Assembly (NCBI GenBank): GCA_963675515.1
Contig: OY776328.1
Coordinates: 60,001 to 92,000 of the forward strand
Direction of reading: 5' to 3'
DNA from: Coprobacillaceae bacterium
GTDB lineage: Bacteria; Bacillota_I; Bacilli_A; Erysipelotrichales; Coprobacillaceae
Length of the DNA stretch: 32,000 bases
The notes under the pieces are model-generated. The model searched no databases. It was not told where the DNA came from and saw nothing but the letters and a program-made list of their open reading frames with translations. Each line of letters begins with the position of its first letter. Positions within the stretch are counted from its first letter, which is position 1. The position numbers were made by a program, and so were the translations under genes. Positions 2,011 through 32,000 of the stretch are shown here, piece by piece.

Positions 2011-4836
2011 TCATAATAATTTTTTCAGGAATGCTCCAGTATGTGATTGTTCACATTTGGCTACCTTTTCAGGTGTGCCCGAGACAACCACGGTACCTCC
2101 ATTATCGCCTCCTTCTGGTCCCAAGTCAATAATATAGTCAGCAACCTTGATGACATCGAGATTATGTTCGATGATGATAACTGTATCGCCCTGGGCTACG
2201 ATATGATCGAGAACCTCGATTAGTTTGGCCACATCGTGGCTGTGCAAGCCAGTTGTCGGTTCATCCAGGATATAGACGGTCTTTCCGGTGGCTTTCTTCT
2301 GGAGTTCGGATGCGAGTTTGACCCGCTGCGCCTCCCCACCCGAAAGGGTTGTCGCCGACTGACCAAGTTTGATATAGCCAAGACCCACATCATAGAGAGC
2401 CTGAAGCTTGCTTTTTATTCTTGGGATGTTTTCGAAGAATTCAAGCGAATCCTCAATCGTCATCTCCAATACGTCAAAAATATTTTTATCTTTATACGTG
2501 ACTTGCAACGTTTCGTCATTATATCTTTTGCCATGGCATTCGTTGCATGGAACATATACATCCGGCAAAAAGTGCATCGAGATTTTCTTGACTCCGTCGC
2601 CCTGGCAAGCCTCGCAGCGGCCACCTTTTACATTGAACGAGAACCGCCCCTTGTCATAGCCACGGATCTTCGCTTCATTCGTCGAGGCGAACAAGTCCCG
2701 GATAAGATCGAAGACTCCGGTATAAGTCACCGGATTAGACCTCGGGGTTCGTCCGATCGGATCCTGGGAAACTTCAATTACCTTGTCGACGTGTTCAAGC
2801 CCCTTGATTTCCTTGTACAAACCTGGCTTTTCCTTGGATTTGTATATCGCATTTTTCAAAACCTTGCCCAGGATGTCATTTACCAACGTCGATTTTCCCG
2901 AACCGCTGACTCCGGTCACCACATTGAAGCATCCGATCGGGAATTTTACCTTGATGTTTTTCAGGTTGTGTTCGTTTGCCCCGATTATTTCCAGATATTT
3001 CTTTTGCGGTTTCCGGCGTTTTTGGGGCACCGGAACACTCAGTTGTCCGGTAAGGTACTTTCCGGTAATGGACTCCTCGCATTCGCCGATTTTATCCGGT
3101 GTCCCTGAGTAGATGACTTCGCCTCCGTGAACCCCTGCGCCAGGACCGATATCGACGATATAATCGCTCGCTCGCATCGTGTCCTCGTCGTGTTCCACCA
3201 CAATCACGCTGTTGCCCAAATCCCTGATATCCAGCAAAGCCTGAATCAGTCTTTCATTGTCCCTTTGGTGCAGTCCGATTGAAGGCTCGTCGAGTACGTA
3301 CAGCACTCCCGACAGCCGGGTTCCGATCTGGGTTGCCAGACGGATCCGTTGGGCTTCGCCACCCGAGAGCGTACCTGCCTTGCGGGCCAGATCAAGATAT
3401 CCAAGGCCGACCTGAGCCAGAAAGGTCAGGCGGTCTTTTATCTCTTTGACAACAAGCCGGGCGATATTGCGCTGGTATTCATCGAGCTGCAGATTTGTGA
3501 TGAATTCGAGGGCATCGACAATTGACAGGTGGGTGAACTGGGCGATATTGATGCCCCCCACCTTGACCGCCAGCACTTTTTCATTGAGCCGGTCCCCGCC
3601 ACAGCTAAGACACGTATGTTCACTCATAAATGATGCATACCACTCCTTAGACCACGAAGATGTGGTTTCCTGGTACAGCCTGGCAATCGATGATTTGACC
3701 CCTTCGATTGCCTTGAACTGGTCGGTCCTTGTTCCACTCGCTGAGATCAATGTGTATTTGATTGGCACATGGGAACCATAGAAGATGATGTTCAGTTCCT
3801 TCTTGGTGAAATTCTTGAGCGGCTTGTCGCAATCTATCTGGTAGTAATCGCACAATGCCAGAAACCTCTGCCATTCCAGCCGGCTTGTTCCGACCGCCGA
3901 CTTGAAGTACCTGATTCCTCCCTGGTTGATCGACAGATCCCAATCGGGAATGAGAAGGTCGTCATCGACCTCGTTCTTGATTCCCAATCCCCGGCAGTCC
4001 GGGCAGGCACCAAGAGGGTTGTTGAAAGAAAACAGGCGAGGTTCAAGTTTTGGAACCGAGAAGCCGCAAATCGGACATGACAAATGCTCGGAGAAAAGCT
4101 GCTGCTCCCCGCTGTCAAGATTAACTACTATCACTTCGCCGCCAGTCAGTTTCAGCCCCACTTCGAGCGAGTCAACCAGCCGGCTGCGGTAATTTTCCTT
4201 CTTGACGATCCGGTCGACTATGACCTCGATATTGTGTTTCTTGTTTTTCTCCAGGGCCGAAACTTCTTCAAGAAGCATGTTTTCACCATCGACCCTGATC
4301 CGCACGAATCCCTGGGAAAGGAGGTCGTCAAAAAGTTCCTTGAATGTCCCTTTCTGGTTCTTGGCCACGCTGGCCAGAATCTGGAGCTTGGTCCCGTCCG
4401 GGTATCCGTCGATGGTATCGGCCATCTGCTTGGTCGTCTGGGCCATGATGGGAATGTTGTGTTCCGGGCAATAGGCGATACCGATGCGGCCAAAAAGCAG
4501 CCTCAGGTAATCATATATTTCCGTCACCGTCCCCACTGTCGAGCGGGGATTGTTCGATGTCGTTTTCTGGTCGATGGCAATCGCCGGAGATAGGCCGTCG
4601 ATACTGTCAACATCCGGCTTTTCCATGTTCCCAAGAAACTGGCGCGCATAGGCGCTCAGCGATTCGACATAACGTCTTTGCCCTTCGGCATAGATCGTGT
4701 CGAACGCCAATGACGATTTGCCCGAGCCCGACAATCCCGTCAAAATTACCAGTTTGTCCTTTGGGATGGTCAGATCGATATTCTTCAGGTTGTTTTCACG
4801 GGCACCTTTAATTACTAAAAAATCTTTATTTGCCAT
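2011..4836 (-). CDS. uvrA: excinuclease ABC subunit A
   Basis: 941 aa with two ABC modules (GLSGSGKSS, GVSGSGKST; LSGGEAQR twice) and CxxC zinc modules. Confidence 0.97.
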   Translation of the reverse strand: MANKDFLVIKGARENNLKNIDLTIPKDKLVILTGLSGSGKSSLAFDTIYAEGQRRYVESLSAYARQFLGNMEKPDVDSIDGLSPAIAIDQKTTSNNPRSTVGTVTEIYDYLRLLFGRIGIAYCPEHNIPIMAQTTKQMADTIDGYPDGTKLQILASVAKNQKGTFKELFDDLLSQGFVRIRVDGENMLLEEVSALEKNKKHNIEVIVDRIVKKENYRSRLVDSLEVGLKLTGGEVIVVNLDSGEQQLFSEHLSCPICGFSVPKLEPRLFSFNNPLGACPDCRGLGIKNEVDDDLLIPDWDLSINQGGIRYFKSAVGTSRLEWQRFLALCDYYQIDCDKPLKNFTKKELNIIFYGSHVPIKYTLISASGTRTDQFKAIEGVKSSIARLYQETTSSWSKEWYASFMSEHTCLSCGGDRLNEKVLAVKVGGINIAQFTHLSIVDALEFITNLQLDEYQRNIARLVVKEIKDRLTFLAQVGLGYLDLARKAGTLSGGEAQRIRLATQIGTRLSGVLYVLDEPSIGLHQRDNERLIQALLDIRDLGNSVIVVEHDEDTMRASDYIVDIGPGAGVHGGEVIYSGTPDKIGECEESITGKYLTGQLSVPVPQKRRKPQKKYLEIIGANEHNLKNIKVKFPIGCFNVVTGVSGSGKSTLVNDILGKVLKNAIYKSKEKPGLYKEIKGLEHVDKVIEVSQDPIGRTPRSNPVTYTGVFDLIRDLFASTNEAKIRGYDKGRFSFNVKGGRCEACQGDGVKKISMHFLPDVYVPCNECHGKRYNDETLQVTYKDKNIFDVLEMTIEDSLEFFENIPRIKSKLQALYDVGLGYIKLGQSATTLSGGEAQRVKLASELQKKATGKTVYILDEPTTGLHSHDVAKLIEVLDHIVAQGDTVIIIEHNLDVIKVADYIIDLGPEGGDNGGTVVVSGTPEKVAKCEQSHTGAFLKKLL

Positions 4837-6184
4837 ATTTACCTCTTACTATATCTATAATTTTATCACGAGACATGCCCCTGAGCTGGAGATCATAAGC
4901 CTCATCCAGTATTTTCCCGTAATTTTTCGGATTTTCTATTTCCCAGGCAATCAGGTCACGGCCTCTTAGATATGGTTCCAATGCCCTGGTGCCGTGCTTG
5001 GCCGCCATTTCGCTCACAAATTTGCTTACTAGCTTGTAATCCTGATAGCCCTCTTTTTTCCGGCCCAGCTTGTCGCATTTTGTCAGAAGGAACAACTCGT
5101 CAAGGCTGACTGCGGGCTCGATGTCCCTGAGAAGTCTGAGGTAGTTGTAATCCTGGTTACTTTTGCGAGCCATGTTCATCAGGGTCATGTGGTATCTTAT
5201 CATCACCTTGAGATACTTTTTCATTTCATTGCTTTTGATCAGGTCGCCCAGCTGTTCTTCAAAAACCTCGACCCCGACTTGGGCGTGAAAAGGGGCGTGG
5301 AGATCACTTGTGGTGACCACCGGTTTCCCGATATCATGAAGGAAGTTGGCCCACATGAAGTAGCTGGGATTTGCACTCTTCTGTTTGACCAGCGAAGCCA
5401 GTTCCACCACCATAATCGTATGGTTTAAAACATTTCCCTCAGGATGATAGTCGAGCCGTTGCATCGTGGCGTCCTGATCCTGCAGCGGCTTGAGCAATCC
5501 GTTGATTTCCCGTAAGAAATTTATCCCGTTGCCCGGATAAGGTCCCATAAGCATTTTGTCATATTCGTTAAAAATCCGTTCCTTCGAAAGATACTCAAGC
5601 CCATTGTCTTTTACGATATTTTCGCATTCCGTTCGGGTAGGCTCATCAGGTTTGAAATTGAACCGTGACATGAACTGGGCCAGTCGCAAGACCCGCAGAG
5701 GATCTTCCCTGAATGTTTCTTGCGAAACCATCCGTAATTTCCGTTCTCTAAGATCTCTCTGCCCGAAATACGGATCATGGATCTTGCCAGTCTTGTATTC
5801 AACATAAATCGCATTGATGGTGAAATCCCGGCGACTTGCCGCTTTTTCTATGTCGAACTGCTCCAGCAGCCTTATCTCAAACTCCTGGTGTCTCTTGCCG
5901 ATTTTTGTTTCCTGGCGTGCCAAAGCAAAATCGACTTCGGGAAAAATATCCAGCTTAAGGATGCCGTAAGCCCGTCCGACATGGGAAACTTCGCCGAACT
6001 TTTCAAGCACCGTTTTGAGCCGGTCCAAGTCAAAACAGAAGATTTCCAGATCGATGTCATTGCTTGGCCAGCTTTCCTCCATCAAATAATCGCGTACATA
6101 ACCTCCGACAAAAAAGACGCGACCGCCATTGAGCTCGATTTGATCAAGGATCTTCTCGAGCTCCTGGGGCAGATTAAATTTCAC
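4826..6184 (-). CDS. cca: class II tRNA nucleotidyltransferase (CCA-adding enzyme type) with C-terminal HD phosphohydrolase domain
   Basis: 452 aa with head-domain motifs [19 protein letters not shown] and [12 protein letters not shown], then [10 protein letters not shown] and FLHDIGK (HD). The layout resembles E. coli-type Cca. GTG start with GGAG 7 nt upstream. It overlaps the uvrB stop and the uvrA start by 11 nt each. Confidence 0.72.
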
Positions 6185-8147
6185 CTTGGAGCTCCAGGAT
6201 GATATCTCTCAACTCCATCGCCCGTTCGAAGTCCAGTTCCTTGGCTGCATGGCGCATCTGTTTTTCCAGATCGGCCACCAGTACCTGGCGTTCCTTCTTG
6301 GATGCTCCCTTGGATTTCTTGAGCAGCGATGTCGCTTTGTCAATTTGTTCAAATCCATGAATCGCTTCGCGGATCTCTTTTTTGATGGTCGTCGGAGTTA
6401 TGTTGTTGGCTTTATTGTAAGCCATTTGAATCTCACGGCGCCGCTTGGTCTCATCGATGGCATATTGCATCGAGTCGGTTATCTTGTCACCGTACATTAT
6501 TACCTGGCCATTGCTGTTGCGGGCCGCCCGTCCGATGGTCTGGATCAACGAACGGTTCGAGCGCAGGAATCCTTCCTTGTCGGCATCCAGGATGCAGACA
6601 AGCGACACCTCAGGCAGGTCAAGCCCTTCGCGAAGAAGGTTGATCCCGATCAGGACGTCATATTTCCCCAGCCGCAAATCACGCAGGATCTGGGTCCGCT
6701 CAAGTGTCTTCGTATCGCTGTGCAGGTACGACACTTTAAGCCCGACTTCTTTGAGGTATGCGGCAAGATCTTCAGCCATCCGCTTGGTCAATGTCGTGAT
6801 CAGTACCCTTTCATTGCGGTCGATCCGTTCATTGATCTGGGATATGATGTCATCGATCTGGTTCTTGGTCGGCTTTATTGTGATTACCGGATCAAGCAGG
6901 CCGGTCGGACGGATGATCTGTTGGACATATTCATTGTTTACCGCCTCGAGCTCATAATCGCCCGGTGTGGCCGACACATATATCGCCTGGTTGATCAATT
7001 CTTCAAATTCCTCAAATCGCAGCGGCCGGTTGTCCATTGCGCTTGGCAGCCGGAAACCGTATTCCACAAGGGTTTCCTTGCGGGCCCGGTCGCCGTTGTA
7101 CATCCCCCGTATTTGGGGCAGCATCACATGCGACTCGTCTACTACGACAAGGAAATCATCGGGAAAATAATCCAGAAGACAATAAGGCCGCTCTCCTGGC
7201 TTACGCCGGTCGATATGGCGCGAGTAGTTTTCGATTCCCGGACAGATGCCAACTTCCTTAAGCAGTTCGATGTCATGGCGTGTTCGCTGTTCAAGACGTT
7301 CATATTCGAGCAGTTTGTTCTCTTTTTTTAGCTGTTCGAGACGATCTTCCAGTTCGTTTTCGATATCAACAGCCGCCTGATTCAATACTTCCTTGGTGGT
7401 GACATAGCCATCCGCCGGGTAGATTGTGTAAGTCTTGAAGTTGCCCAGCACGGCTCCGGTCAGCGGATCGACCTCTGATATTCTTTCCACTGTATCACCA
7501 AACAGCTCGATCCGGATCTTGTATGCGTCGCTGTGGCCCGGGGTGATTTCAATCACATCGCCCCTGACCCTGAATGTCCCTTTTGTCTGTTCGATATCGT
7601 TGCGGTGGTATTGCCGGTCGACCAGATAGGTAAGCAGTTCATTCCGGTCGATTTCCTGATCGACCCGCAATGAAAATATCATTTCTTTGTACTGCGCCGG
7701 ATTTCCCAGACCGTAAATCGAGGCCACCGAGGCAACCACGATCACATCATCCCGTTCAATCAGGGAGTTCATCGCGGCCGCCCTAAGCATTTCGATCTCG
7801 TAGTTTGTCTTCGAATTCTTGTCGATATAAAGATCTCGGCCTGGAATATAAGCTTCTGGCTGATAGAAATCGAAGTTGGAAATGAAGTATTCCACCCGGT
7901 TCTCCGGGAAGAATTCCTTAAGCTCCGAATACAATTGTCCTGCCAGGGTTTTGTTGTGGGCCAGTACAAGAGTCGGTTTTTGCACTTGGGCAATAACATT
8001 GGAAACCGTGAAGGTCTTCCCCGTTCCGGTCCCGCCAAGCAATACCTGTTCTCTTTTTCCTGATCTTATCCCTGCGACCAATTCCTTGATAGCTTCAATC
8101 TGGTCTCCCATCGGCTCGAAAGGAGAAACTAACTTAAATTCTGGCAT
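6174..8147 (-). CDS. uvrB: excinuclease ABC subunit B
   Basis: 657 aa with helicase motif [13 protein letters not shown], and a C-terminal UVR domain ([12 protein letters not shown]). Confidence 0.97.
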
Positions 8148-8155
8148 ATTGTCAC

Positions 8156-9565
8156 CTACTTTATCAATTCAATAACTTGGTTATATATATTATCATTTAT
8201 TTCCAGAGAAACATAGTTGAGCGACTTGGAAATCACGGCCAGATAGGTATCACTATCAAGACCGGTCGTAAGTTCCATGCCATTGTCCTGCTGGAACTTG
8301 TTTATCGCCATCAAGGTTTCCTGATCAAAATAGCCATCTTCGCGGCAAAGGTAACCCAGGATGTTCAATGCCGCCTGGATTGGCTGGAGCTGGTCGACAT
8401 CCACGGTATCGACATCGATGTCAGCATCAATGGCGGTATCGTTGAAAGAAAAACCATACCCGGAATCCACCGGAATCGCAGGAGCGATTCCCGACCCTTG
8501 GATATTGCTGCCATTTGGCAGATACCATTTGGCATAGGTGTACTTGAGGGTCGAACCGTCAGTCAAGGGCACCGAAACCTGGGCTATCCCCTTGCCAAAG
8601 CTGGTATTTCCAACCGTCACATATCCCAGGTTGTCAACGAGGGAACCGGTGAGAATTTCAGCGGCTGATGCCGTTTCTTCATTGATGAGAATATATCCTT
8701 TTTTGAATGTGGTAACCACATCACCATTGCTGTAATAATCTTTCAAGGGATTGTCATTTGTTTCAATAGAATAAACCAACTCCCCTTTTTCAACAAAAAG
8801 ATCAAGGATGTCGCTGCAGGCACTTATCAGTCCGCCGCCATTTGACCGGAGGTCGATCACAATTGTCGTTATGTTGTTGCTCGCAAACAGTTCCAGACCG
8901 TCTTTCACTTCCTGGGCTGTCTCATCGCCAAACGTATTGATTTCAAGATATCCAAATGACTGGTCGCCTGATTGACGAATGCTTGCGATCGAACCGGTGG
9001 CTATGTACTCCCGGGTGATCGATACATCCCGTGACACACCCAGATATTCAACCTTCAGATTGGCAACCGTTCCCTGGTCACCGGTGATCAAATCCTTCAT
9101 TTGCTGGGAATCCAGCCCTTCCAGGCTTTGTGAGTCACTGGCAACGATAATGTCCCCTGCCTTCAAATCAGTCTGGCTGGCAGGTGAATTGTTCACGACT
9201 TTGGTAATCAATGCGCCATTGTCGGTCGCTATGAAATTGACGCCGATCCCAATCAGGCTGCCATCCATCGATGCATTGAAGATGGCCGTCTGTTCCGGTG
9301 TCATGTAAGTCGTGTACTTGTCATCGAGACCGGACACGAGGCCGGCCGCAGCCGCCTGCTCGAAATCGATATCTTCATTGGGATTGAGCCAGTTTTCCTC
9401 GAGAATCTCGTATATCTCACTTATGGTGTTGACGCCATTGTTGGCTATTATCACCGGATGGGATTGGGATATGAAATAACCTGCCAAAAAGCTGATGGCA
9501 ACCAGCGCCGTTATTCCTGCTATTATCCGCCCATAACGATATTTGCGTTTGTTTGTTCGCTTCAT
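8156..9565 (-). CDS. S41 family carboxy-terminal processing protease with N-terminal membrane anchor, PDZ domain and C-terminal peptidoglycan-binding-like repeat
   Basis: 469 aa with an N-terminal TM helix ([19 protein letters not shown]), a PDZ-like segment ([25 protein letters not shown]), an S41 core ([20 protein letters not shown]) and a C-terminal PG_binding_1-like segment ([10 protein letters not shown]...[10 protein letters not shown]). Confidence 0.85.
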
Positions 9566-9659
9566 AAATTGCTCCTTATTGTACTACTTTAGTTTACCAC
9601 AAACTTTTAAAGATAAAAAATAAAACACCAAATAATCGTGGCAAATATCGACAGTACGC

Positions 9660-9685
9660 AAAAAAAGACCGGCAGCGGTCTTTTC
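9660..9685 (-). terminator. rho-independent terminator downstream of gap
   Basis: Stem AGACCG/CGGTCT (9666-9671 / 9676-9681) with loop GCAG. On the minus strand it is followed by a 7-U tract (A-run 9660-9666). Confidence 0.6.
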
Positions 9686-9704
9686 TTGTTAGCTAAATAA
9701 TGGT

Positions 9705-10718
9705 TTATGCTAATTCAGCGAAATATTTGATTGTTCTAACCATTTGGCTAGTGTATGAGTTTTCATTATCATACCATGCAACTGTTTGAACTTGGCTGTT
9801 TCCATCTTCCATAACAGTTACCATAGTTTGAGTAGCATCAAAGATTGATCCGAAAGTTGAACCAACGATGTCTGCAGAAACGATTGGGTCAGTGTTGTAA
9901 GCGTATGAAGCGTTAGCAGCAGCTTTCATTGCAGCATTTACTTCATCAACAGTTACTTTACCTTCAACAACTGAGATCAGGATTGTTGTAGATCCAGTTG
10001 GAGTTGGTACACGTTGAGCTGAACCGATTAATTTTCCATCTAATTCAGGGATAACTAATCCGATTGCTTTTGCAGCACCAGTTGAAGAAGGAACGATTGA
10101 AACAGCTCCAGCACGAGCTCTTCTTAAATCCCCACCTCTATGTGGTCCGTCTAATAACATTTGGTCACCAGTGTAAGCATGAACTGTTGTCATGATACCT
10201 GATTTGATTGGAGCTAATTTGTTTAAAGCGTTAGCCATAGGAGCTAAACAGTTAGTTGTACAAGAAGCTGCTGAGATGATTTTGTCATCTGCAGTCAAGA
10301 TACCTTCGTTTACACCGAATACAACTGTTGGTAAGTCGTTTCCAGCTGGAGCTGAGATAACAACTTTTTTAGCACCTGCATCGATATGAGCTTGAGATTT
10401 TGCTTTTGAAGTATAGAATCCAGTACATTCCAATACTACATCTACCCCTAATTCTCCCCATGGTAATTCAGCTGCGTTTGATTTAGCAAAGATTTTGATT
10501 TCTTTACCGTCAACAGTGATTGAATCTTCACCAGCAACAACTGTATCCGCTAAAGCGTATTTACCTTGAGCTGAATCATATTTCAATAAATGAGCCAACA
10601 TTTTAGGTGCTGTCAAATCGTTGATTGCTACTACTTCATAACCTTCTGCACCAAACATTTGTCTGAATGCTAGACGTCCAATACGCCCAAAACCATTAAT
10701 CGCTACTTTTACTGCCAT
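9705..10718 (-). CDS. gap: glyceraldehyde-3-phosphate dehydrogenase
   Basis: Has INGFGRIGR and the active site SCTTNC. I place the start at ATG 10718 (MAVKVAING...), preceded by AAGGAGG. The upstream 17 codons of the tracked ORF look like a spurious extension. Confidence 0.95.
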
Positions 10719-16742: not shown

Positions 16743-16916
16743 CAGAACTGCCTCCTTTTTTCACTTTATGATACAATTTTAGCACCTTACTTCGCTTATT
16801 GAAAGCAATACGCTTATTTTTTTCATAATTGTGAAATTTCATATCTTGGAAAAACGGCATGATTAATTTTTATCCCGATACAATAGAGCCATAAACTAAA
16901 GGAGGACTTTTTTTAA

Positions 16917-27416: not shown

Positions 27417-27424
27417 CAAACTCA

Positions 27425-27451
27425 GCCATAGGCAAACGCCTGTGGCTTTTT
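27425..27451 (+). terminator. rho-independent terminator after the GH1 gene
   Basis: 9-bp stem GCCATAGGC/GCCTGTGGC (27425-27433 / 27438-27446) followed by TTTTT. Confidence 0.85.
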
Positions 27452-27513
27452 CCTTGCAAACATAGAAGATCGAATAGAGGGTAAGTAATCACGTGTGTTA
27501 CTTATCCCCTTTC

Positions 27514-27601
27514 ACACCACTTATACCGACTTTTGGATTATCCCGACAAATATGTATTTTTGAGGGATAGTCCTTTTTTGTATTATTAAAAGTCGGGATA
27601 A
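27514..27601. repeat. left terminal inverted repeat (IRL) of the RIT-type element
   Basis: Perfect inverted match to 30863-30950. It contains the boxes TTATACCGAC (27521-27530), TTATCCCGAC (27538-27547) and an inverted GTCGGGATAA (27592-27601). Confidence 0.9.
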
Positions 27602-27642
27602 TTTTATTTTCAGTCTATAATGTAGCTAGGAGGTAGTTTGAA

Positions 27643-28872
27643 ATGAAAAATTTGAATAGTATCGACGAATTAGTTCAGCTTGCTTTAAATAACCTGAAGT
27701 CTCAAGGCTATAATGAACTTACCATTCAGGCCTACGAATCCAGCTACTTTAACCCCATTTTGAAAAGATATTCTGACTTAAATCAAATAAACTATAGTCG
27801 GGAAATTATGGATTCACTGCTAAAGTTCTATCTTTCGCAACTTCAAAACAAAATTATTAGTAGGACCACCTATAATAAAAGAGTGCGTGGCGTCTTAATG
27901 ATTACCGAACTTAATGATTTCGGTTCCTTCAAGTGGAAAGTTTTCACATTTAAGAATGAAATCCCCATATCATCAGAGTTCCAAATCACAATAAAAGAAT
28001 ATTTGAAAAATAGAGAAGTATCTATTAGGACCCTTCAATTTGAAGAGCGAATCCTATATTTATTTTCAAATTTTCTAAACAATCATGATATTTTGCAACC
28101 GAAATTAATAAGTACTAGCGATATAGTGGAATTTATTAAGATCATCTCTAAGGATAACCCAAAATCCATGGAGAAGATACTCACTTGTCTGAAAAAATAT
28201 TTAGTTAATTTGTATAGAAATAATAAGATTGATTTTGATATAAGCTCCATCGTTTCCTTCGGTAAAATACGAGACAGGGCATTATATCCGCCAATAGATA
28301 TTATTGATCTTGTAGGAATTTTAAATTCAATTGATAGGGAGACACCTACCGGAAAAAGAAATTATGCGATTATAATATTGGGAGCAATGACAGGGCTAAG
28401 AGCTGGAGATATAGTACGGATTCAGCTTGAAGATATTGATTGGAAAAAACGCAAATTAAATATAGTTCAAGGGAAAACAAATAGTCCCCTAACAGTGCCA
28501 TTAACTGAGAGTGTCTGTAATGCAATTGCGGACTACATTCTAAATGGAAGACCCAAAACTGATGATAATAGTGTTTTCATAAGATCATTAGCTCCTTTTA
28601 CGGGGCTTAAAGACGGCTGTTCTATCGCTTCTTTTTTTAGAAGGTATCTACTGAAGGCTGGAATTGAACCCTCCCTTAAAACCGGGAACACTTTCCACTC
28701 TATTAGGCGGATGTTAGGGACTCAACTTATTATCAACGGCGTTCCGGTTACAATGATTGCACAGCTCTTGGGTCACCATTCGGTCATACCTACTAAGCAA
28801 TATATTTCACTTGATGTTGAGGGTTTGAGAAAGTGTGCGTTATCTATGGAAACACTTGGTGGTAGAATATGA
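27643..28872 (+). CDS. ritA: tyrosine recombinase, first gene of the trio (RitA position)
   Basis: 409 aa with catalytic-type residues in GLRAGDI (R), HSIRRMLGT (HxxR) and LLGHHSVIPTKQYISL (H...Y). AGGAGG SD. The stop overlaps the next start (ATGA). Confidence 0.8.
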   Translation: MKNLNSIDELVQLALNNLKSQGYNELTIQAYESSYFNPILKRYSDLNQINYSREIMDSLLKFYLSQLQNKIISRTTYNKRVRGVLMITELNDFGSFKWKVFTFKNEIPISSEFQITIKEYLKNREVSIRTLQFEERILYLFSNFLNNHDILQPKLISTSDIVEFIKIISKDNPKSMEKILTCLKKYLVNLYRNNKIDFDISSIVSFGKIRDRALYPPIDIIDLVGILNSIDRETPTGKRNYAIIILGAMTGLRAGDIVRIQLEDIDWKKRKLNIVQGKTNSPLTVPLTESVCNAIADYILNGRPKTDDNSVFIRSLAPFTGLKDGCSIASFFRRYLLKAGIEPSLKTGNTFHSIRRMLGTQLIINGVPVTMIAQLLGHHSVIPTKQYISLDVEGLRKCALSMETLGGRI

Positions 28873-29819
28873 AATTCATATATGATTATATCGCAGACAT
28901 GATTAAATATCGAATTGATTTAGGGTATTCGTTGCAACCAACTTCTTGGTATCTTAACGATTTTTCCAAATACTTGACGAATAATTTTCCCAGTGAAACA
29001 ATGCTTACTCAAGAAATGATCATGCCTTGGTGTGTGCAAAGGAAAACTGAGCAGGCGTGCAGTTTTCGATCTAGAATGTCATCAATAAGACAATTTACAC
29101 TTTACCTTTTTGCGAACGGAGCTTCCAACTTTGTACTTGATTTGAATTTCTTACCTAAAATCACAAGATATGTACCTTATATATTCACAAACATGGAGCT
29201 TAAAACCATTTTTGAAATGGCTGATAGTAAAAAATATATCAAACCTATGACGGCTAAAAATAGAATCATATCTGTAATCTATCGATTGATATACTTTTGT
29301 GGTCTTCGGCCAAACGAAGGTCGTGAAATAATGAAAAAAGATTTGGACTTGGATAATGGAACTATACTTATTAGAAAAAACAAAAATCATAAGGAACGTT
29401 TAATTCCAATGGCCGTTGATGTAACAGATATGATGCGCGAGTATATCGATGAAATGAAGTTAATATTTCCAAATACTGATTATGTTTTTCCATCTCCAAC
29501 CGGGCTTCCATATCATTCAAAATGGTTAAGGACGGAATTCTTGAAGATTTGGGATGAGATAAAGCCCGAGGGTGGTAGAGCTCGTGTAAGAGTATACGAT
29601 TTACGTCATCGCTGGGCGACAACTGTCATGATGAAACTCTTAAACGAAGGTGAAGATTTATATTCATTGCTTCCCTACATGAGTGCCTATATGGGTCATT
29701 CCAATTTCGAAGACACGGCTTATTATATTCACTTACTTCCAGAGGAATTAATTAAATCATCTGAAGTTGATTGGGAAAGGTTTTCCTCAATCATTCCTGA
29801 GGTGTCTAAGTATGACTGA
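28869..29819 (+). CDS. ritB: tyrosine recombinase, second gene of the trio (RitB position)
   Basis: 316 aa with GLRPNEGR, YDLRHRWATT and MGHSNFEDTAYYIH. Confidence 0.8.
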   Translation: MKFIYDYIADMIKYRIDLGYSLQPTSWYLNDFSKYLTNNFPSETMLTQEMIMPWCVQRKTEQACSFRSRMSSIRQFTLYLFANGASNFVLDLNFLPKITRYVPYIFTNMELKTIFEMADSKKYIKPMTAKNRIISVIYRLIYFCGLRPNEGREIMKKDLDLDNGTILIRKNKNHKERLIPMAVDVTDMMREYIDEMKLIFPNTDYVFPSPTGLPYHSKWLRTEFLKIWDEIKPEGGRARVRVYDLRHRWATTVMMKLLNEGEDLYSLLPYMSAYMGHSNFEDTAYYIHLLPEELIKSSEVDWERFSSIIPEVSKYD

Positions 29820-30861
29820 AAATTCATTATGTTTCTTCAAAATGATTAGAGATTATTTTGAGTCTTTCTTACCAAAACAAAAAGGAAACAGCTTCAACAC
29901 AATCAAATCCTATAAAATCACTATGAATCAATTTCTAAAATATGCATGTAACGCCAATAAAATCAAACTATCTGACTTTTGCTTCGAGATAACCTCGGTT
30001 AAGCTACTTGATAATTTTTTGAATGACGGTGAGCAATATTCCGGGTGGTCTTGCAGTACTAGAAATCAGAAACTGGCAGCAATTCGTTCGTTTTACAAAT
30101 ATGTTGCATCTCGCAATATTTCTTTAATGGCATATTACCAAGAACTACTTGCGGTCCCTATGAAAAAGATGTCCAAAAATAATCAGATTGAATACTTCTC
30201 CGAAAATGTTTTAGAAACATTACTTAGGCAGCCAAACACAAAAACAAAAAAAGGAATACGGGATTTGGTTTTCATGATACTAATGTATGACACTGGAGCT
30301 AGAATTCAGGAAATTTTGGATCTCAAAATTGGAGACCTGTTCCTATTTAGTGAAGTCCCGTACGTGAAACTAACAGGAAAGGGCAGTAAAGTAAGATTAG
30401 TCCCAATTATGGAAAAAACGATAAACCACTTGAAAAATTATCTATCGATATTTCACTTAAAATCAAAAGACGATAGCTTCGTTTTTTGTTCAAAACGAAA
30501 GGAAATCATCAGTCAACTGTCGCCAGATGCTGTTCAAAAATTTATTGATAAATATTGTGCATCCGCTCATGATGTAGATGAAGAAGTACCTATTCATATT
30601 TATCCGCATATGTTCCGCCATTCTAGAGCCATGCATTTATATCATGGTGGAATGCCGCTACCACTTATTTCCGAATGGCTTGGACATGCGCAAGTTTCTA
30701 CAACAATGGAATTTTATGCGCAGGCAACATTAGAAATGAAAAAACAGGCAATTGAGCAGGCTACAGAAGCAATTAGCCCCTTAATAAATATTTCTAATAA
30801 ATACAATCTGGATTTTGAAAATGATGAAGAACTGATTAAAAGGCTCTATGGATTGATATGA
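29812..30861 (+). CDS. ritC: tyrosine recombinase, third gene of the trio (RitC position)
   Basis: Start placed at ATG 29812 (MTENSLCFF..., GAGGTG 7 nt upstream), which overlaps the ritB stop by 8 nt. Has TGARIQEIL, HMFRHSRAMH and LGHAQVSTTMEFYAQ. The stop lies 1 nt before IRR. Confidence 0.8.
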   Translation: MTENSLCFFKMIRDYFESFLPKQKGNSFNTIKSYKITMNQFLKYACNANKIKLSDFCFEITSVKLLDNFLNDGEQYSGWSCSTRNQKLAAIRSFYKYVASRNISLMAYYQELLAVPMKKMSKNNQIEYFSENVLETLLRQPNTKTKKGIRDLVFMILMYDTGARIQEILDLKIGDLFLFSEVPYVKLTGKGSKVRLVPIMEKTINHLKNYLSIFHLKSKDDSFVFCSKRKEIISQLSPDAVQKFIDKYCASAHDVDEEVPIHIYPHMFRHSRAMHLYHGGMPLPLISEWLGHAQVSTTMEFYAQATLEMKKQAIEQATEAISPLINISNKYNLDFENDEELIKRLYGLI

Positions 30862-30862
30862 G

Positions 30863-30950
30863 TTATCCCGACTTTTAATAATACAAAAAAGGACTATCCC
30901 TCAAAAATACATATTTGTCGGGATAATCCAAAAGTCGGTATAAGTGGTGT
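30863..30950. repeat. right terminal inverted repeat (IRR) of the RIT-type element
   Basis: Perfect reverse complement of 27514-27601. Confidence 0.9.
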
Positions 30951-30975
30951 TATCCCGATATCGGGATAACACCAC
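30944..30975. repeat. 32-bp perfect palindrome GTGGTGTTATCCCGAT|ATCGGGATAACACCAC straddling the IRR end
   Basis: Manual reverse complement is identical. It consists of the last 7 nt of IRR, two inverted TATCCCGAT boxes, and a second copy of ACACCAC, the first 7 nt of IRL. Confidence 0.9.
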
Positions 30976-31001
30976 CGTACATACGGTTCCGTATACGGCG
31001 G
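30972..31001 (-). ncRNA. group II intron domain V-like hairpin
   Basis: Minus strand reads CCGCCGUAU-ACG-GAAC-CGU-AU-GUACGGUGG. It has a 9-bp lower helix with CGC at positions 2-4 and a G.U wobble at the G, a 2-nt bulge on the 3' strand, a 3-bp upper helix and a 4-nt loop. It starts 1 nt after the RT ORF stop codon. Confidence 0.65.
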
Positions 31002-31002
31002 T

Positions 31003-32000
31003 TCAGCACTTTACGCGTTTATAGTAATCTAAAAAGAATATATAGTTTAATGATTTGATATATTCATTCGACAGCGTCTTACTAAGAACTGGGCTATGGG
31101 CAATTCGCCAATAGCCTTTTCTTGTGTTCGCATTTCGATATGCTTCATTGTCATTCATTCCTAACTTGACGAGGTTTTCATGCCTAGTCTTTATTTTCTT
31201 CCATTGTTTCCACAATCGGCATCTAATCTTGGCCCGCATCCATTGGTCTGTTTCAGACATCAGTGTCTTCATGTTGGCTATTTTGAAATAGTTGACCCAT
31301 CCCATGATGAATCTTCTGAGCATTACTGGGTGATAATCATTTGATATATGCCCTTTTGTCTTGCTTAGAAGTTCCCTCATGCGGTTCTTCATTTTGACAA
31401 CTGACTTGGGGTGTACTCTAACCTGAGCGCCATCTTTATTGAAATAGAACCCAAAGCCAAGAAACTTCACTTTTGGTGCATAGGCAACCACAGTTTTGTC
31501 TCTGTTGACTTTTAGTTTCAGCTTGCCTTCAATGAACTCAGTTACTGATTTCATGACTCTTTGTGCCCCCCTTGAACTTTTGCAGAGTATCATTACGTCA
31601 TCCGCGTAGCGAACGAAGCGGTGGCCTCGTTGTTCCAGTTCCCTATCCAATTCGTTGAGCATAATGTTTGAAAGTATCGGACTGAGTGGTCCTCCTTGAG
31701 GTACGCCGACTATGGTCTTTCGATATTCTCCTTCAACTTCTACTCCCGCATTGAGATAACGGTTAATGAGCGAAATCACTCTTCCATCCTTGATTGTCTT
31801 TGACAGTATCGTTATCAGTTTATCATGATTGACCGTGTCAAAGTATTTCTCCAAGTCCATATCTACGATTTGACGGTATCCGGCATTGAGATTTTCAACG
31901 CATTTTTCAATCGCATCGTGGGCACTTCTTTGGGGGCGGAATCCATAACTATTTTCACTAAACAACGGTTCGTAGATAGGTGTCAGCACTTGGGCGATTG
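31003..32000 (-). CDS. group II intron reverse transcriptase/maturase (partial; N-terminus beyond the window end; no C-terminal endonuclease domain visible)
   Basis: Has LTPIYEPLFSENSYGFRPQRSAHDAI, DLEKYFDTVNH, GVPQGGPLSPILSNI, the YADD motif in RYADDVMIL, and a maturase X-like region (RRFIMGWVNYF). The frame stays open to position 32000. Confidence 0.9.
   Translation of the reverse strand, partial: IAQVLTPIYEPLFSENSYGFRPQRSAHDAIEKCVENLNAGYRQIVDMDLEKYFDTVNHDKLITILSKTIKDGRVISLINRYLNAGVEVEGEYRKTIVGVPQGGPLSPILSNIMLNELDRELEQRGHRFVRYADDVMILCKSSRGAQRVMKSVTEFIEGKLKLKVNRDKTVVAYAPKVKFLGFGFYFNKDGAQVRVHPKSVVKMKNRMRELLSKTKGHISNDYHPVMLRRFIMGWVNYFKIANMKTLMSETDQWMRAKIRCRLWKQWKKIKTRHENLVKLGMNDNEAYRNANTRKGYWRIAHSPVLSKTLSNEYIKSLNYIFFLDYYKRVKC

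Follow-up and report, generated by a model that had tools for sequence, protein, structure and literature searches.

The locus at 27514-30975 of the window (the whole stretch of 32,000 nucleotides analysed here) raises the question whether it holds a recombinase-in-trio (RIT) element and, if so, at which sites the element is cut and rejoined. RITs are jumping genes whose mechanism is unsolved, and a comparison of more than 100 relatives reveals conserved sites where cutting and rejoining most likely take place. A first-pass annotation had taken the block for an intact element of RIT type, probably still mobile, and this core reading agrees with the family in gene order and sizes, overlaps, reciprocal best hits, the domains of RitA and RitC, the terminal repeats with their palindrome, total length and the presence of a second copy at another site. 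The block is a genuine autonomous RIT transposon, thus a copy of an already known element class, and it is nested in a second mobile element, a group II intron. The mobile unit covers 27521-30969 (3449 bp) and consists, in this order, of an 81-bp module, ritA-ritB-ritC, the reversed 81-bp module, the hexamer X′ and a 20-bp palindrome; together with the flanking hexamers it coincides with the range originally annotated. The AT-richness noticed earlier is also found, with a GC content of 0.35-0.38 through the element vs 0.42-0.53 over most of the window.

Features of the RIT element and of the interrupted intron in the window (P and P′, the two halves of the palindrome)
Feature	Position	Strand	Description
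Intron domain VI and 3′ end	27474..27514	-	Context; domain V then domain VI folds once the unit is removed
Left hexamer X (CACCAC)	27515..27520	+	Varies between copies, matches the target; L013 alignment and family-wide hexamer table
Left 81-bp module	27521..27601	+	Inverted repeat and motif scan
B1 TTATACCGAC	27521-27530		Left module motif
B2 TTATCCCGAC	27538-27547		Left module motif
B3, inverted	27592-27601		Left module motif
Candidate ritA signals	27616..27633	+	Putative -10 box TATAAT (27616-27621) and ribosome-binding site AGGAGG (27628-27633), read directly
ritA	27643..28872	+	409 aa, tyrosine recombinase, two N-terminal core-binding domains (predicted)
ritB	28869..29819	+	316 aa, tyrosine recombinase, YxxRH replacing HxxRH
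ritC	29812..30861	+	349 aa, Xer-like tyrosine recombinase, conserved C-terminal extension
Right 81-bp module	30863..30943	-	Exact reverse complement of the left module
Internal hexamer X′ (GTGGTG)	30944..30949	+	Reverse complement of X; GTTTGA in L013
20-bp perfect palindrome TTATCCCGAT/ATCGGGATAA	30950..30969	.	Two head-to-head motif copies; identical in L013
Right outer hexamer X (CACCAC)	30970..30975	+	Native to the target: 3′ end of intron domain V plus linker
Group II intron domain V	30976-31003	-	Rfam RF00029, 29.7 bits, E 1.3e-3; domain V part at high posterior probability
Reverse transcriptase/maturase ORF	31003-31989	-	RVT_1 E 4e-38, GIIM E 1e-13; runs off the window; context 30976..32000

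The archetype of the class is Rmet_1271-1273 of Cupriavidus metallidurans CH34, and further trios are found on the megaplasmid pHG1 (Van Houdt 2009/2012). Likewise, in the window three tyrosine-recombinase genes, ritA, ritB and ritC, follow one another in the same direction. Their annotated sizes of 409, 316 and about 349 aa are borne out, and all three products contain PF00589 (E values of 3e-27, 4e-22 and 4e-31, respectively). The ORF list starts the third gene at a TTG (29767, 364 aa), but a length of 349 aa in homologues and in the gene called in L013, a related copy at another locus, supports the ATG at 29812. The gene overlaps given by the annotation (ATGA at 28869-28872 and 8 nt at 29812-29819) were read directly in the sequence and fall within the 4-8 bp characteristic of RIT ORFs (PMC3414803). 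A consensus promoter scan reported no promoter upstream of ritA, because the -35 element (TCGGGA, overlapping B3) is weak.

It had been proposed to compare the three proteins with the RIT families. Pfam and NCBIfam contain no curated RitA, RitB or RitC profiles; in BLASTP comparisons with the pHG1 trio each product pairs reciprocally, as best hit, with its own counterpart among RitA, RitB and RitC. RitA matches protein 1 at E 4e-49 and the other two at 1e-8 to 1e-12, RitB matches protein 2 at 4e-44 and RitC protein 3 at 7e-62, while all cross pairs lie between 1e-5 and 1e-12. An equivalent pattern was obtained with the Robertmurraya trio. The HxxR signature annotated in each protein is present in RitA and RitC, which have the series R...HxxR...H...Y and with it the complete catalytic set R-K-H-R-H-Y, but not in RitB. 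Here the motif is YDLRH, with a tyrosine at the position of the first histidine, and the same tyrosine is found in 14 of the 17 RitB relatives examined. RitA is predicted to have two sequential core-binding domains, since its AF2 model (pLDDT 84) shows four-helix bundles at residues 7-93 and 111-192, followed by the catalytic domain. RitC has SAM-like N-terminal domains and, in its model, an extra helix (307-319, low local confidence of 57-64) after the helix with Tyr302; its tail is conserved with invariant M309, K310, A313, A317, D338 and L345. Two sequential core-binding domains in RitA and a C-terminal helix in RitC are named features of RITs (PMC8138268). The dN/dS values are 0.26 for ritA, 0.15 for ritB and 0.08 for ritC.

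Several other assignments were tried and rejected. The proteins are not XerC/XerD chromosome dimer resolvases: they reach 75-145 bits against equivalog cut-offs of 330-335, and the trio is found at several loci, not at one conserved site. Assignment to a phage integrase does not fit the N-termini, which are SAM-like core-binding domains alone, without an arm-binding domain; the neighbours are housekeeping genes and the intron reverse transcriptase, and no match was found in the phage collection. Scores against the Gamma-mobile-trio model (GmtY, NCBIfam NF040693) are 19 and 17 bits with a cut-off of 340 bits. Members of the Tn554, SE and GInt families have two recombinases, one of them large, and non-recombinase partners (TnpC, Srap, Tfp, GinC/GinD). 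Here, three tyrosine recombinases of ordinary size are encoded and no fourth gene lies between the repeats.

The annotated 88-bp repeats (27514-27601 and 30863-30950) are reverse complementary at 88 of 88 positions and lie 3261 nt apart, which cannot be chance. As the element end they had been drawn slightly too wide: in each, an 81-bp terminal module belongs to the element, whereas the outer 7 bp, a single A/T base plus the hexamer CACCAC, do not. The module carries TTATNCCGA motifs at +1, +18 and, inverted, +72, a layout that recurs in 18 divergent RITs. Three copies of the 10-bp motif TTATNCCGAN are present per module and two more come from the palindrome; the motif scan gave nine matches vs 0.25 expected. 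The palindrome, which adjoins the right repeat and was recovered as 16+16 nt in an inverted-repeat search, belongs to the mobile unit and is followed by a third copy of the hexamer. From this layout of motifs and palindrome, three core-type sites result in the integrated element, and in each of them a 6-bp spacer separates two half-sites: flank-X-B1 at the left, B1′-X′-P internally and P′-X-flank at the right. The half-sites contributed by the target show no resemblance to the TTATNCCGA motif.

Published RITs measure about 3.5 kb; their ends vary in sequence and carry a 28-29-bp inverted repeat with a palindrome overlapping it (PMC3414803). The unit of the window, about 3.45 kb with terminal inverted repeats and an adjoining palindrome, agrees in size and ends. 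It shares with the CH34 and pHG1 RITs the overlapping co-directional genes A (~410 aa), B (~315 aa) and C (~335-350 aa) with overlaps of 4-8 nt, the length of about 3.5 kb, the repeats next to a palindrome, the insertion into other mobile elements and the best match of each protein to its positional counterpart. Unlike these elements, the window RitB has a tyrosine for the first histidine of HxxR. Protein identity to the pHG1 trio is just 27-34%, the host of the window element is a low-GC Firmicute (Erysipelotrichaceae-like), and the pHG1 RIT has a different palindrome and different motif sequences. The repeat, with 81+7 bp, is longer than the published ones (28-34 bp quoted) and perfect.

More than 120 metagenomic contigs contain the exact 20-bp palindrome, which adjoins a RIT end at 90 junctions; the proteins of these elements are only 21-49% identical to those of the window RIT. 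The scan demanded the exact palindrome and hence gives no share of RITs carrying one, and the Robertmurraya and pHG1 RITs carry other palindromes. The Robertmurraya RIT (33% RitA identity), located inside an IS66 transposase gene, has the same layout of hexamers and palindrome as the window. At 53 of the 90 junctions the internal hexamer is an exact complement of the outer one; at the remainder the two differ at one to four positions, never more. Both ends lie on one contig for 20 elements (18 loci, including three contigs with two palindromes). All three hexamers are equal in half of these (10/20), and in five (four independent sites) the discontinuity is at the palindrome; one of the five, L053, is a rearrangement and three others differ at a single base. 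Identity of the hexamers of element and target appears to be favoured, not obligatory, and mismatched states can also come from recombination between RIT copies at different loci, as in L053. The palindrome lies beside the ritC end at 25 junctions and beside the ritA end at 18. In one Robertmurraya copy (L003), both the trio and the single mismatch of the palindrome are flipped, and the palindrome keeps its target side. Four contigs (L035, L056, L071 and L110) have palindromes at both ends, possibly an assembly effect of the inverted repeats. Many homologues are located on contigs of ~3.2-3.5 kb, which is typical of collapsed repeats.

The position directly after a host terminator, as first annotated, was not upheld. 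A terminator-like hairpin follows the GH1 gene (27424-27447), and it is separated from the repeat by approximately 60 bp in which a group II intron has its 3′ end. The element is nested in this intron, between domains V and VI, and the start of the 3′ exon, UCGAU, is common to the interrupted intron and related introns. Relatives occupy the equivalent intron position or conserved transposase motifs. Removal of the unit and one hexamer restores adjacent domain V and VI hairpins in the introns, and yields continuous IS66 DDE ORFs in four relatives (L123, L122, L037 and L045) and a continuous IS30-like ORF in another (L022). Some RIT flanks gave above-threshold Rfam matches to D1-D4 domains of group II introns, from three classes or more; in others, transposases (IS66, IS256-type and rve/Mu) are encoded, and in one case an IS110-family gene lies just downstream. 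We infer that RITs target short conserved stretches of other mobile elements, in the window the linker between domains V and VI.

The copy L013 is 94.9% identical over 27519-30969 of the window and lies at a different locus. Homology in the alignment begins at 27520/27521, and the only four differences at the right end all fall within the internal hexamer. The hexamers of L013 are TCAAAC/GTTTGA/TCAAAC vs CACCAC/GTGGTG/CACCAC in the window, an identical layout with four of six positions different. The intron carrying L013 shows no detectable DNA similarity to the window intron, and therefore the RIT moves independently of its carrier. That the repeats might be internal parts of a larger element, an objection anticipated by the first-pass annotation, is true only trivially, by nesting. 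The modules and the palindrome (~182 bp) have no differences from L013 vs 9.4 expected (P ~1e-4), whereas the genes differ by 5%. The perfection of the repeats, from which a recent insertion had been deduced, is no sign of recency because the 81-bp modules are also identical in this diverged copy; the comparison indicates constraint instead. Recent movement is likewise not borne out by the genome, in which no identical second copy is present: three RitA paralogues are located on the same 2.88-Mb contig, and the others are 19 aa different or truncated (P0122). The window copy is probably functional, judging from intact genes under purifying selection, perfect modules and three matching hexamers.

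Other tyrosine recombinases exchange strands at an overlap region of 6-8 bp. The reading that we consider best, with a probability of roughly 0.6, is that this autonomous RIT would transpose conservatively by crossover at the hexamer via a palindromic joint, as a circle or a hairpin. The three recombinases would bind the motifs and swap strands at the hexamer; as a guess, the two core-binding domains of RitA may read the tandem motifs B1 and B2. A crossover between the left and right junctions would release the unit with the joint B1′-X′-P/P′-X-B1, a perfect palindrome in which the same core site occurs twice, once in each orientation. The predicted sequence of this joint is ...GTCGGTATAA-GTGGTG-TTATCCCGATATCGGGATAA-CACCAC-TTATACCGAC..., and the same crossover would restore the donor site, giving the predicted intron ...TTTCA-CACCAC-CGTACA... 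The free unit might be a circular duplex, a linear molecule closed by hairpins, or single-stranded. Insertion would be the reverse reaction through either core site, which would explain why the trio is found in both orientations with the palindrome on a constant target side. Matching all three hexamers to a new target family, as between the window and L013, would need several rounds of exchange. For the window copy, these static sequences show neither a free joint nor an empty site or an excision product; one contig (L116) has the predicted joint, possibly again an assembly effect of the inverted repeats.

A single-strand route has been proposed for SE elements and Tn554 and has been shown for integron cassettes and the CTX phage. 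Two alternatives to the crossover reading concern the form in which the element travels. The less doubtful one, still tentative, is that the free form is not a circle but a hairpin-closed linear duplex, made and re-fused at the P/P′ palindrome in the manner of a telomere resolvase. RITs are enriched in exonuclease-resistant DNA in which a circle junction was undetected, and hairpin intermediates from the terminal palindromes have been proposed (PMC5737581); a circle with a long palindromic joint, however, would likewise evade paired-end junction detection. The integrated arrangement B1′-X′-P/P′-X-flank is what would be expected from fusing two hairpin ends, and solo palindromes that join two different IS66 flanks head to head (for instance L072) look like fusions. 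Site-specific recombination between copies accounts for such fusions equally well, and by their scores the Rit proteins are simple recombinases of the Xer kind. Somewhat less probable is a single-strand pathway, with exchange or copying-out of one strand and replication to fix the product. The folded 88-nt repeats and X′-P/P′-X would form a recombination site, and B1′-X′-P, being perfectly complementary, would pair with P′-X-B1 to a duplex core site. In SE and Tn554 a 6-bp spacer travels between sites (PMC10214605), a behaviour similar to the hexamer mismatches of RITs, and in cases with several differences the left hexamer agrees with the internal one and the outer one alone differs. The counts of the mismatch patterns are small, though (five elements at four independent sites vs three vs two), and include possible single-base mutations and the rearrangement in L053. 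Moreover, no replication or HUH function is encoded, and two-strand exchange with segregation of a heteroduplex fits the data as well.

That the copy is immobile and persists as cargo of the intron or as a fixed relic is unlikely. The nesting in the intron and the genome with its truncated paralogue and no identical second copy would fit, and the Robertmurraya IS66::RIT composite is repeated as a whole at 99.97% identity, so that carriers can spread RITs. Yet the genes are intact with dN/dS values of 0.08-0.26, the sites are perfectly conserved, L013 has moved independently of its carrier, and an insertion between domains V and VI is likelier to cripple the intron than to ride on it. Hardly credible is the view that no transposon is present and that the trio represents Xer-type resolvases of the host, a cluster of phage integrases or a switch for local DNA inversion. 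The top NCBIfam matches are indeed the XerA, XerC and XerD models, and relative to the flanks both orientations of the trio are seen, as with invertible segments; but scores of 75-145 bits stay below the cut-offs of 220-335, there are no phage genes nearby, the same unit is found at different loci between target hexamers where its removal restores the interrupted genes, and the homologues on contigs of element length also speak against this view.

The proposed crossover at a travelling hexamer has partial counterparts in other systems. SE elements and Tn554 resemble the RIT in having several tyrosine recombinases, a travelling 6-bp spacer ('fingerprint/footprint'), specific targets and no DDE/HUH enzyme. 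They differ in having two recombinases with the partners Tfp/Srap or TnpC, imperfect short terminal repeats, no palindrome and no third inverted hexamer, and a sequence relationship is undetectable beyond the catalytic fold. The coupling sequences of Tn916 and CTnDOT are similar with respect to staggered cuts of 6-7 bp, flank-derived bases in the intermediate and tolerance of overlap heterology, but these are large conjugative elements with a single integrase and Xis, without long perfect repeats or a palindromic joint. The telomere resolvases ResT, TelK and TelN also act on a perfect palindrome with a catalytic domain of the tyrosine-recombinase type, and the RIT joint is built like a hairpin telomere after replication; the Rit proteins, in contrast, are Xer-like simple recombinases, and hairpin formation by RITs is a proposal (PMC5737581). 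Sites of the Tn4430 TnpI and Xer/lambda type likewise combine a core half-site by the crossover with spaced recombinase motifs (in the RIT at +18 and +72). There, a single enzyme uses the site for resolution or integration, whereas in the RIT an identical three-motif module is present at both ends of a three-enzyme transposon.

The element at 27514-30975 had been described in the first-pass annotation as bounded by perfect 88-bp terminal inverted repeats. The two arms (27514-27601 and 30863-30950, 88 nt) are indeed 100% complementary, and the range takes in the whole unit with its hexamers. A second RIT copy, located at a different locus on the metagenomic contig L013, is 94.9% identical across window positions 27519-30969. 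In the end alignment the shared sequence begins at 27521 (TTATACCGAC...), and on the other side the similarity continues past the right repeat, skips six bases and runs into a 20-bp palindrome. Because of this alignment, the 88-bp repeat is read as an 81-bp terminal module plus a hexamer and one A/T base, both of which lie outside the module. Judged from the same comparison, the palindrome is also part of the mobile unit. The hexamer varies between copies, yet it is found three times inside each copy; L013 carries TCAAAC, GTTTGA and TCAAAC.

Features of the RIT element, its recombination sites and its surroundings in the window
Feature	Position	Strand	Size	Remark
GH1 terminator	27424-27447			host gene left of the element
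Domain VI and intron 3′ end	27514 down to 27474	minus		left of the element
Hexamer CACCAC	27515-27520			left outer
ritA	27643-28872		409 aa	ORF call
ritB	28869-29819		316 aa	ORF call
ritC	29812-30861		349 aa	from ATG 29812, best start
Hexamer GTGGTG	30944-30949			internal
Palindrome TTATCCCGAT/ATCGGGATAA	30950-30969		20 bp	conserved in L013
Hexamer CACCAC	30970-30975			right outer
Group II intron domain V	30976-31003	minus		Rfam RF00029, E 1.3e-3, relaxed search
Group II intron reverse transcriptase/maturase		minus		right of the element
Left site				flank-X-B1
Internal site				B1′-X′-P
Right site				P′-X-flank
X, hexamer; P and P′, palindrome halves; B1, first motif copy of a terminal module; X′ and B1′, reverse complements.

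Nine copies of the motif TTATMCCGAY are present in the window (0.25 expected), and eight of them are within the element: three in each module, at +1 (B1) and +18 (B2) in forward and at +72 (B3) in inverted orientation, and two in the palindrome. The +1/+18/+72 layout is present at both ends in 18 RITs from widely different hosts, while the intervening sequence varies. The integrated element therefore has three sites of classical build, each consisting of two half-sites around a 6-bp spacer. A lone TTATCCCGAT is located at 16870-16879, intergenic and 5′ of a GH4 gene, with neither a partner motif nor a palindrome close by; it was put down to chance.

Three explanations of these ends were weighed. 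A simple target-site duplication of the flanking 5-6 bp was rejected, because a third, inverted copy that lies between conserved sequences changes together with the other two. The palindrome could be a target sequence, but the interrupted IS66 ORFs and intron linkers are restored only if it is removed with the element, and this explanation was rejected as well. The perfect identity of the repeats had been taken as a sign of recent insertion. The genes of the window and L013 copies diverge by 5%, yet not one of the roughly nine differences expected in the modules and palindrome is present (P ~1e-4); thus the perfect repeat reflects constraint, not recency.

Our furthest-reaching reading is that RITs share a family site architecture, built of a pair of 81-bp modules with three motifs each, a 20-bp palindrome that is near-universal, and a hexamer in direct, inverted and direct orientation, that this architecture implies a perfectly palindromic joint with two equivalent core sites (circle or hairpin) and crossover at the hexamer, and that RITs appear specialised in parasitising mobile elements. 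We give this reading as a whole a probability of roughly 40%. Neither a description of this site architecture and its hexamer triad nor a link between RITs and group II introns was found in the literature covered, outside which Ricker et al. 2013 lies.

Searching public metagenomes for perfect matches to the 20-bp palindrome gave at least 120 contigs. Among the matches listed there are 125 occurrences: an RIT end (NTCGGNATAA) lies six bases off on one side in 90, a single one is bordered by such ends on both sides, 31 lack an RIT end and three are at contig edges. The proteins encoded beside these palindromes are, among the matches listed, 21-49% identical to those of the window, so conservation of the palindrome far exceeds that of the enzymes. 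Not all RITs have it, since those of Robertmurraya and of the megaplasmid pHG1 carry others. At 53 of the 90 listed junctions, the internal and outer hexamers are exact complements; 1, 2, 3 and 4 positions differ at 16, 9, 7 and 5 of them, and never more than four. Twenty elements (18 loci) have both ends on one contig, including L035, L056 and L071, which carry a palindrome at both ends. All three hexamers are equal in ten of these; the outer hexamer deviates in five (four independent sites), the left in three and the internal in two, mostly by single bases. This bias of 5 to 3 to 2 is too small to serve as a guide to single- or double-strand exchange. Locus L053, with a multi-base mismatch, was rejected as a clean carry-over of the hexamer between synonymous codons; its flanks come from different genes and it is thus a rearrangement between two loci. 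The joint-like L116 and the both-end palindromes of L035, L056, L071 and L110 were set aside as evidence, being inseparable from assembly effects. Among the matches listed, the palindrome adjoins the ritC end at 25 junctions and the ritA end at 18.

The simplest fit to this layout would be a conservative site-specific transposition. The left and the right junction site would recombine at the hexamer, which would free the unit and restore the donor; the healed intron is predicted to read TTTCA-CACCAC-CGTACATACGG. The freed joint, B1′-X′-P/P′-X-B1, would be a perfect palindrome with two identical core sites opposed, with the predicted sequence GTCGGTATAA-GTGGTG-TTATCCCGATATCGGGATAA-CACCAC-TTATACCGAC. 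Insertion via either core site would place the genes in either orientation, the palindrome always lying on one side of the target, which matches the 25:18 split and an inverted RIT in Robertmurraya. The model would place cleavage at the hexamer borders. A staggered exchange over the hexamer would leave heteroduplexes, so that a few rounds would suffice to replace the three hexamers; movement between copies of the same target family would make them identical, and mismatched ones would mark recent arrival or recombination between copies. There are parallels in the 6-bp "fingerprint/footprint" of SE elements and Tn554 (PMC10214605) and in the coupling sequences of Tn916. The free form may be a circle, a hairpin-closed linear molecule or a single strand; a hairpin form has been proposed, and exonuclease-resistant RIT DNA without circle junctions was reported (PMC5737581).

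Three composites on the chromosome of Robertmurraya sp. 2P01SA (complete genome; L001, L002 and L003, ~4125-10055) carry an RIT inside an IS66-family transposase gene. Two of them are 99.97% identical across 5.9 kb. In the third, the trio is flipped together with a single palindrome mismatch, while the palindrome keeps its side of the target; the internal hexamer of this inverted RIT differs from the flanking hexamer at two of six bases.

Flanks of RITs and solo palindromes include group II intron D1-D4 domains of at least three Rfam classes with scores above gathering, and in intron flanks domain V always abuts the outer hexamer. Genes for IS66, IS256-type (Transposase_mut) and rve/Mu transposases are present in other flanks, and in one case an IS110-family transposase gene follows some 0.3 kb downstream. 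Removal of the unit with one hexamer gives continuous IS66 DDE ORFs at four loci and an IS30-like ORF at one. The insertion points lie in highly conserved motifs (DNNxAER, LHVDGY, CxAHxxR, YFPKG); target half-sites show no resemblance to the RIT motif. On these flanks, RITs seem to have specialised in parasitising other mobile elements and seem to home to their most conserved stretches, namely the domain V/VI linker of group II introns of several classes and the catalytic-motif codons of transposases (IS66, IS30-like, IS256 and rve-type). Single RITs have been described in a Tn6049-like transposase gene and in radC of an ICE (PMC3414803). If the preference for conserved motifs is real, it would be a clear case of a mobile element living on others and would make RITs a source of rearrangements between intron or insertion-sequence copies.

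Palindromes without an RIT were found with direct (L064, L069, L082, L098, L125, L060, L036) and with inverted hexamers (L024, L057, L065, L072, L083, L112), several of them in group II introns. They resemble footprints that remained when the gene-bearing part was lost. At L072, two different IS66 flanks are joined head to head, which looks like an RIT-mediated rearrangement. A 294-bp gene-less mini-element with two terminal modules between two palindromes (L110, 1515-1860) may be a non-autonomous RIT derivative, and its inverted flanks may be an assembly effect. The identical palindrome and hexamer are located beside another conserved end, TTGGGGGTATCCATTTAACCGGAG, at L083, L084, L112 and L024; this end may belong to another element type that shares the site.

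RITs are widespread across bacterial phyla, and of the prokaryotic transposon groups listed in PMC10214605 they belong to the small number for which no one has yet reproduced movement. A reaction of this kind is normally carried out by a tetramer of one or two recombinases, and we know of no explanation for the three recombinases of RITs. The window copy is compact (3.45 kb) and intact, and its ends are exactly defined with a 95% relative; its value lies in these clear bounds and the close comparator. The family comparison replaces a vague "inverted repeat and palindrome with variable ends" by a falsifiable site model with eight motif copies, three core sites, a 6-bp crossover hexamer and a predicted joint, which makes the RIT mechanism directly testable.

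Pfam and NCBIfam hold no RIT-specific models; subfamilies were therefore assigned by reciprocal BLAST against the trio on pHG1 of Cupriavidus necator, a replicon named as RIT-rich (PMC3414803); tblastn placed this trio, and its proteins were taken from the annotation. For every window protein the match to the pHG1 protein in the same position (A-A 4e-49, B-B 4e-44, C-C 7e-62) is far better than to the other two (1e-5 to 1e-12); each thus falls with RitA, RitB or RitC, as anticipated. An XerC/D identity is not supported: the top NCBIfam matches are Xer models, with 75-145 bits well under the cut-offs of 220-335. Two sequential core-binding domains in RitA and an extra conserved C-terminal helix in RitC are hallmarks of these proteins (PMC8138268). 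The AlphaFold model of RitA (pLDDT 84) has four-helix bundles at 7-93 and 111-192 followed by the catalytic domain; that of RitC has a helix at 307-319 past the Tyr302 helix, and this tail is kept in 35 homologues. The length of ~3.45 kb, the 4-8-nt overlaps, the inverted repeats and the adjoining palindrome fit the published RIT description (PMC3414803). RIT membership is supported by all of these features. The pHG1 RIT itself (L134, ~3785-3830 and 7330-7360) differs from that of the window in palindrome and repeat: a 28-bp palindrome, GCGCAAATGTGCTG/CAGCACATTTGCGC, adjoins the ritA-side repeat GCGCTATTACCGGCCG. The overall layout may be general, the sequences not.

The three co-directional ORFs between the repeats all carry the PF00589 catalytic domain (E 4e-22 to 4e-31), and direct reading of the sequence bears out the ATGA and 8-nt overlaps. 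The ritC start is preferred because the homologues and the gene called in L013 have 349 aa. An R...HxxR...Y signature had been assigned to each protein; RitA and RitC have the complete R...HxxR...H...Y set, whereas RitB has YDLRH with Tyr replacing the first His, as do 14 of 17 relatives. The block is AT-richer, as noted earlier (GC 0.35-0.38 versus 0.42-0.53 in most of the window). With dN/dS between window and L013 of 0.26 (ritA), 0.15 (ritB) and 0.08 (ritC), all three genes are, on these ratios, kept by purifying selection. The dS values (window 27643-30861 versus L013 8001-11219) are 0.12-0.13 for ritA and ritB and 0.31 for ritC, and this unevenness suggests that the two copies are mosaics from recombination between RIT lineages. 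The element is a genuine, intact RIT and is probably functional; of the proposal that it is a recent, intact and still mobile copy, the part on recent movement in the source genome is not supported.

A 2,881,239-bp contig of this genome, on which one window protein occurs exactly, encodes, besides the window RitA (P0121), an intact paralogue (P0001, 19 aa differences) and a truncated one (P0122), compared here as protein sequences. P0122 ends after residue 378 and lacks the catalytic tyrosine; at least one RIT copy in the genome has therefore decayed. No match came from exact-protein look-ups with the window RitA, P0001 and P0121 or from a megablast of the element against plasmid and phage collections. 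Elsewhere the window holds ordinary chromosomal genes (ABC-F ATPase, peroxiredoxin, aconitase, isocitrate dehydrogenase, sugar hydrolases).

The element had been placed directly after a host terminator; instead, it is nested in a group II intron between domains V and VI. Without the unit and one hexamer, the two domains fold side by side. At the gathering threshold Rfam gave no match in the window, L013, L001 or L003, because the insertion separates the domains. The L013 RIT has the same intron position, and since the two introns have no detectable DNA similarity, the RIT arrived in them independently. The intron (27474-27514 and 30976-32000, minus strand) has its 3′ end ~22 bp from the GH1 terminator, and its 5′ part extends past the window edge. 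In its RNA the two 88-nt repeats would base-pair, which could reunite domains V and VI; an RIT-bearing intron might still splice, carrying the RIT along. The sole good -10 box 5′ of ritA is TATAAT at 27616-27621, and its -35 position falls within B3 (27592-27621 region). Speculatively, a recombinase bound at B3 could repress the rit operon.
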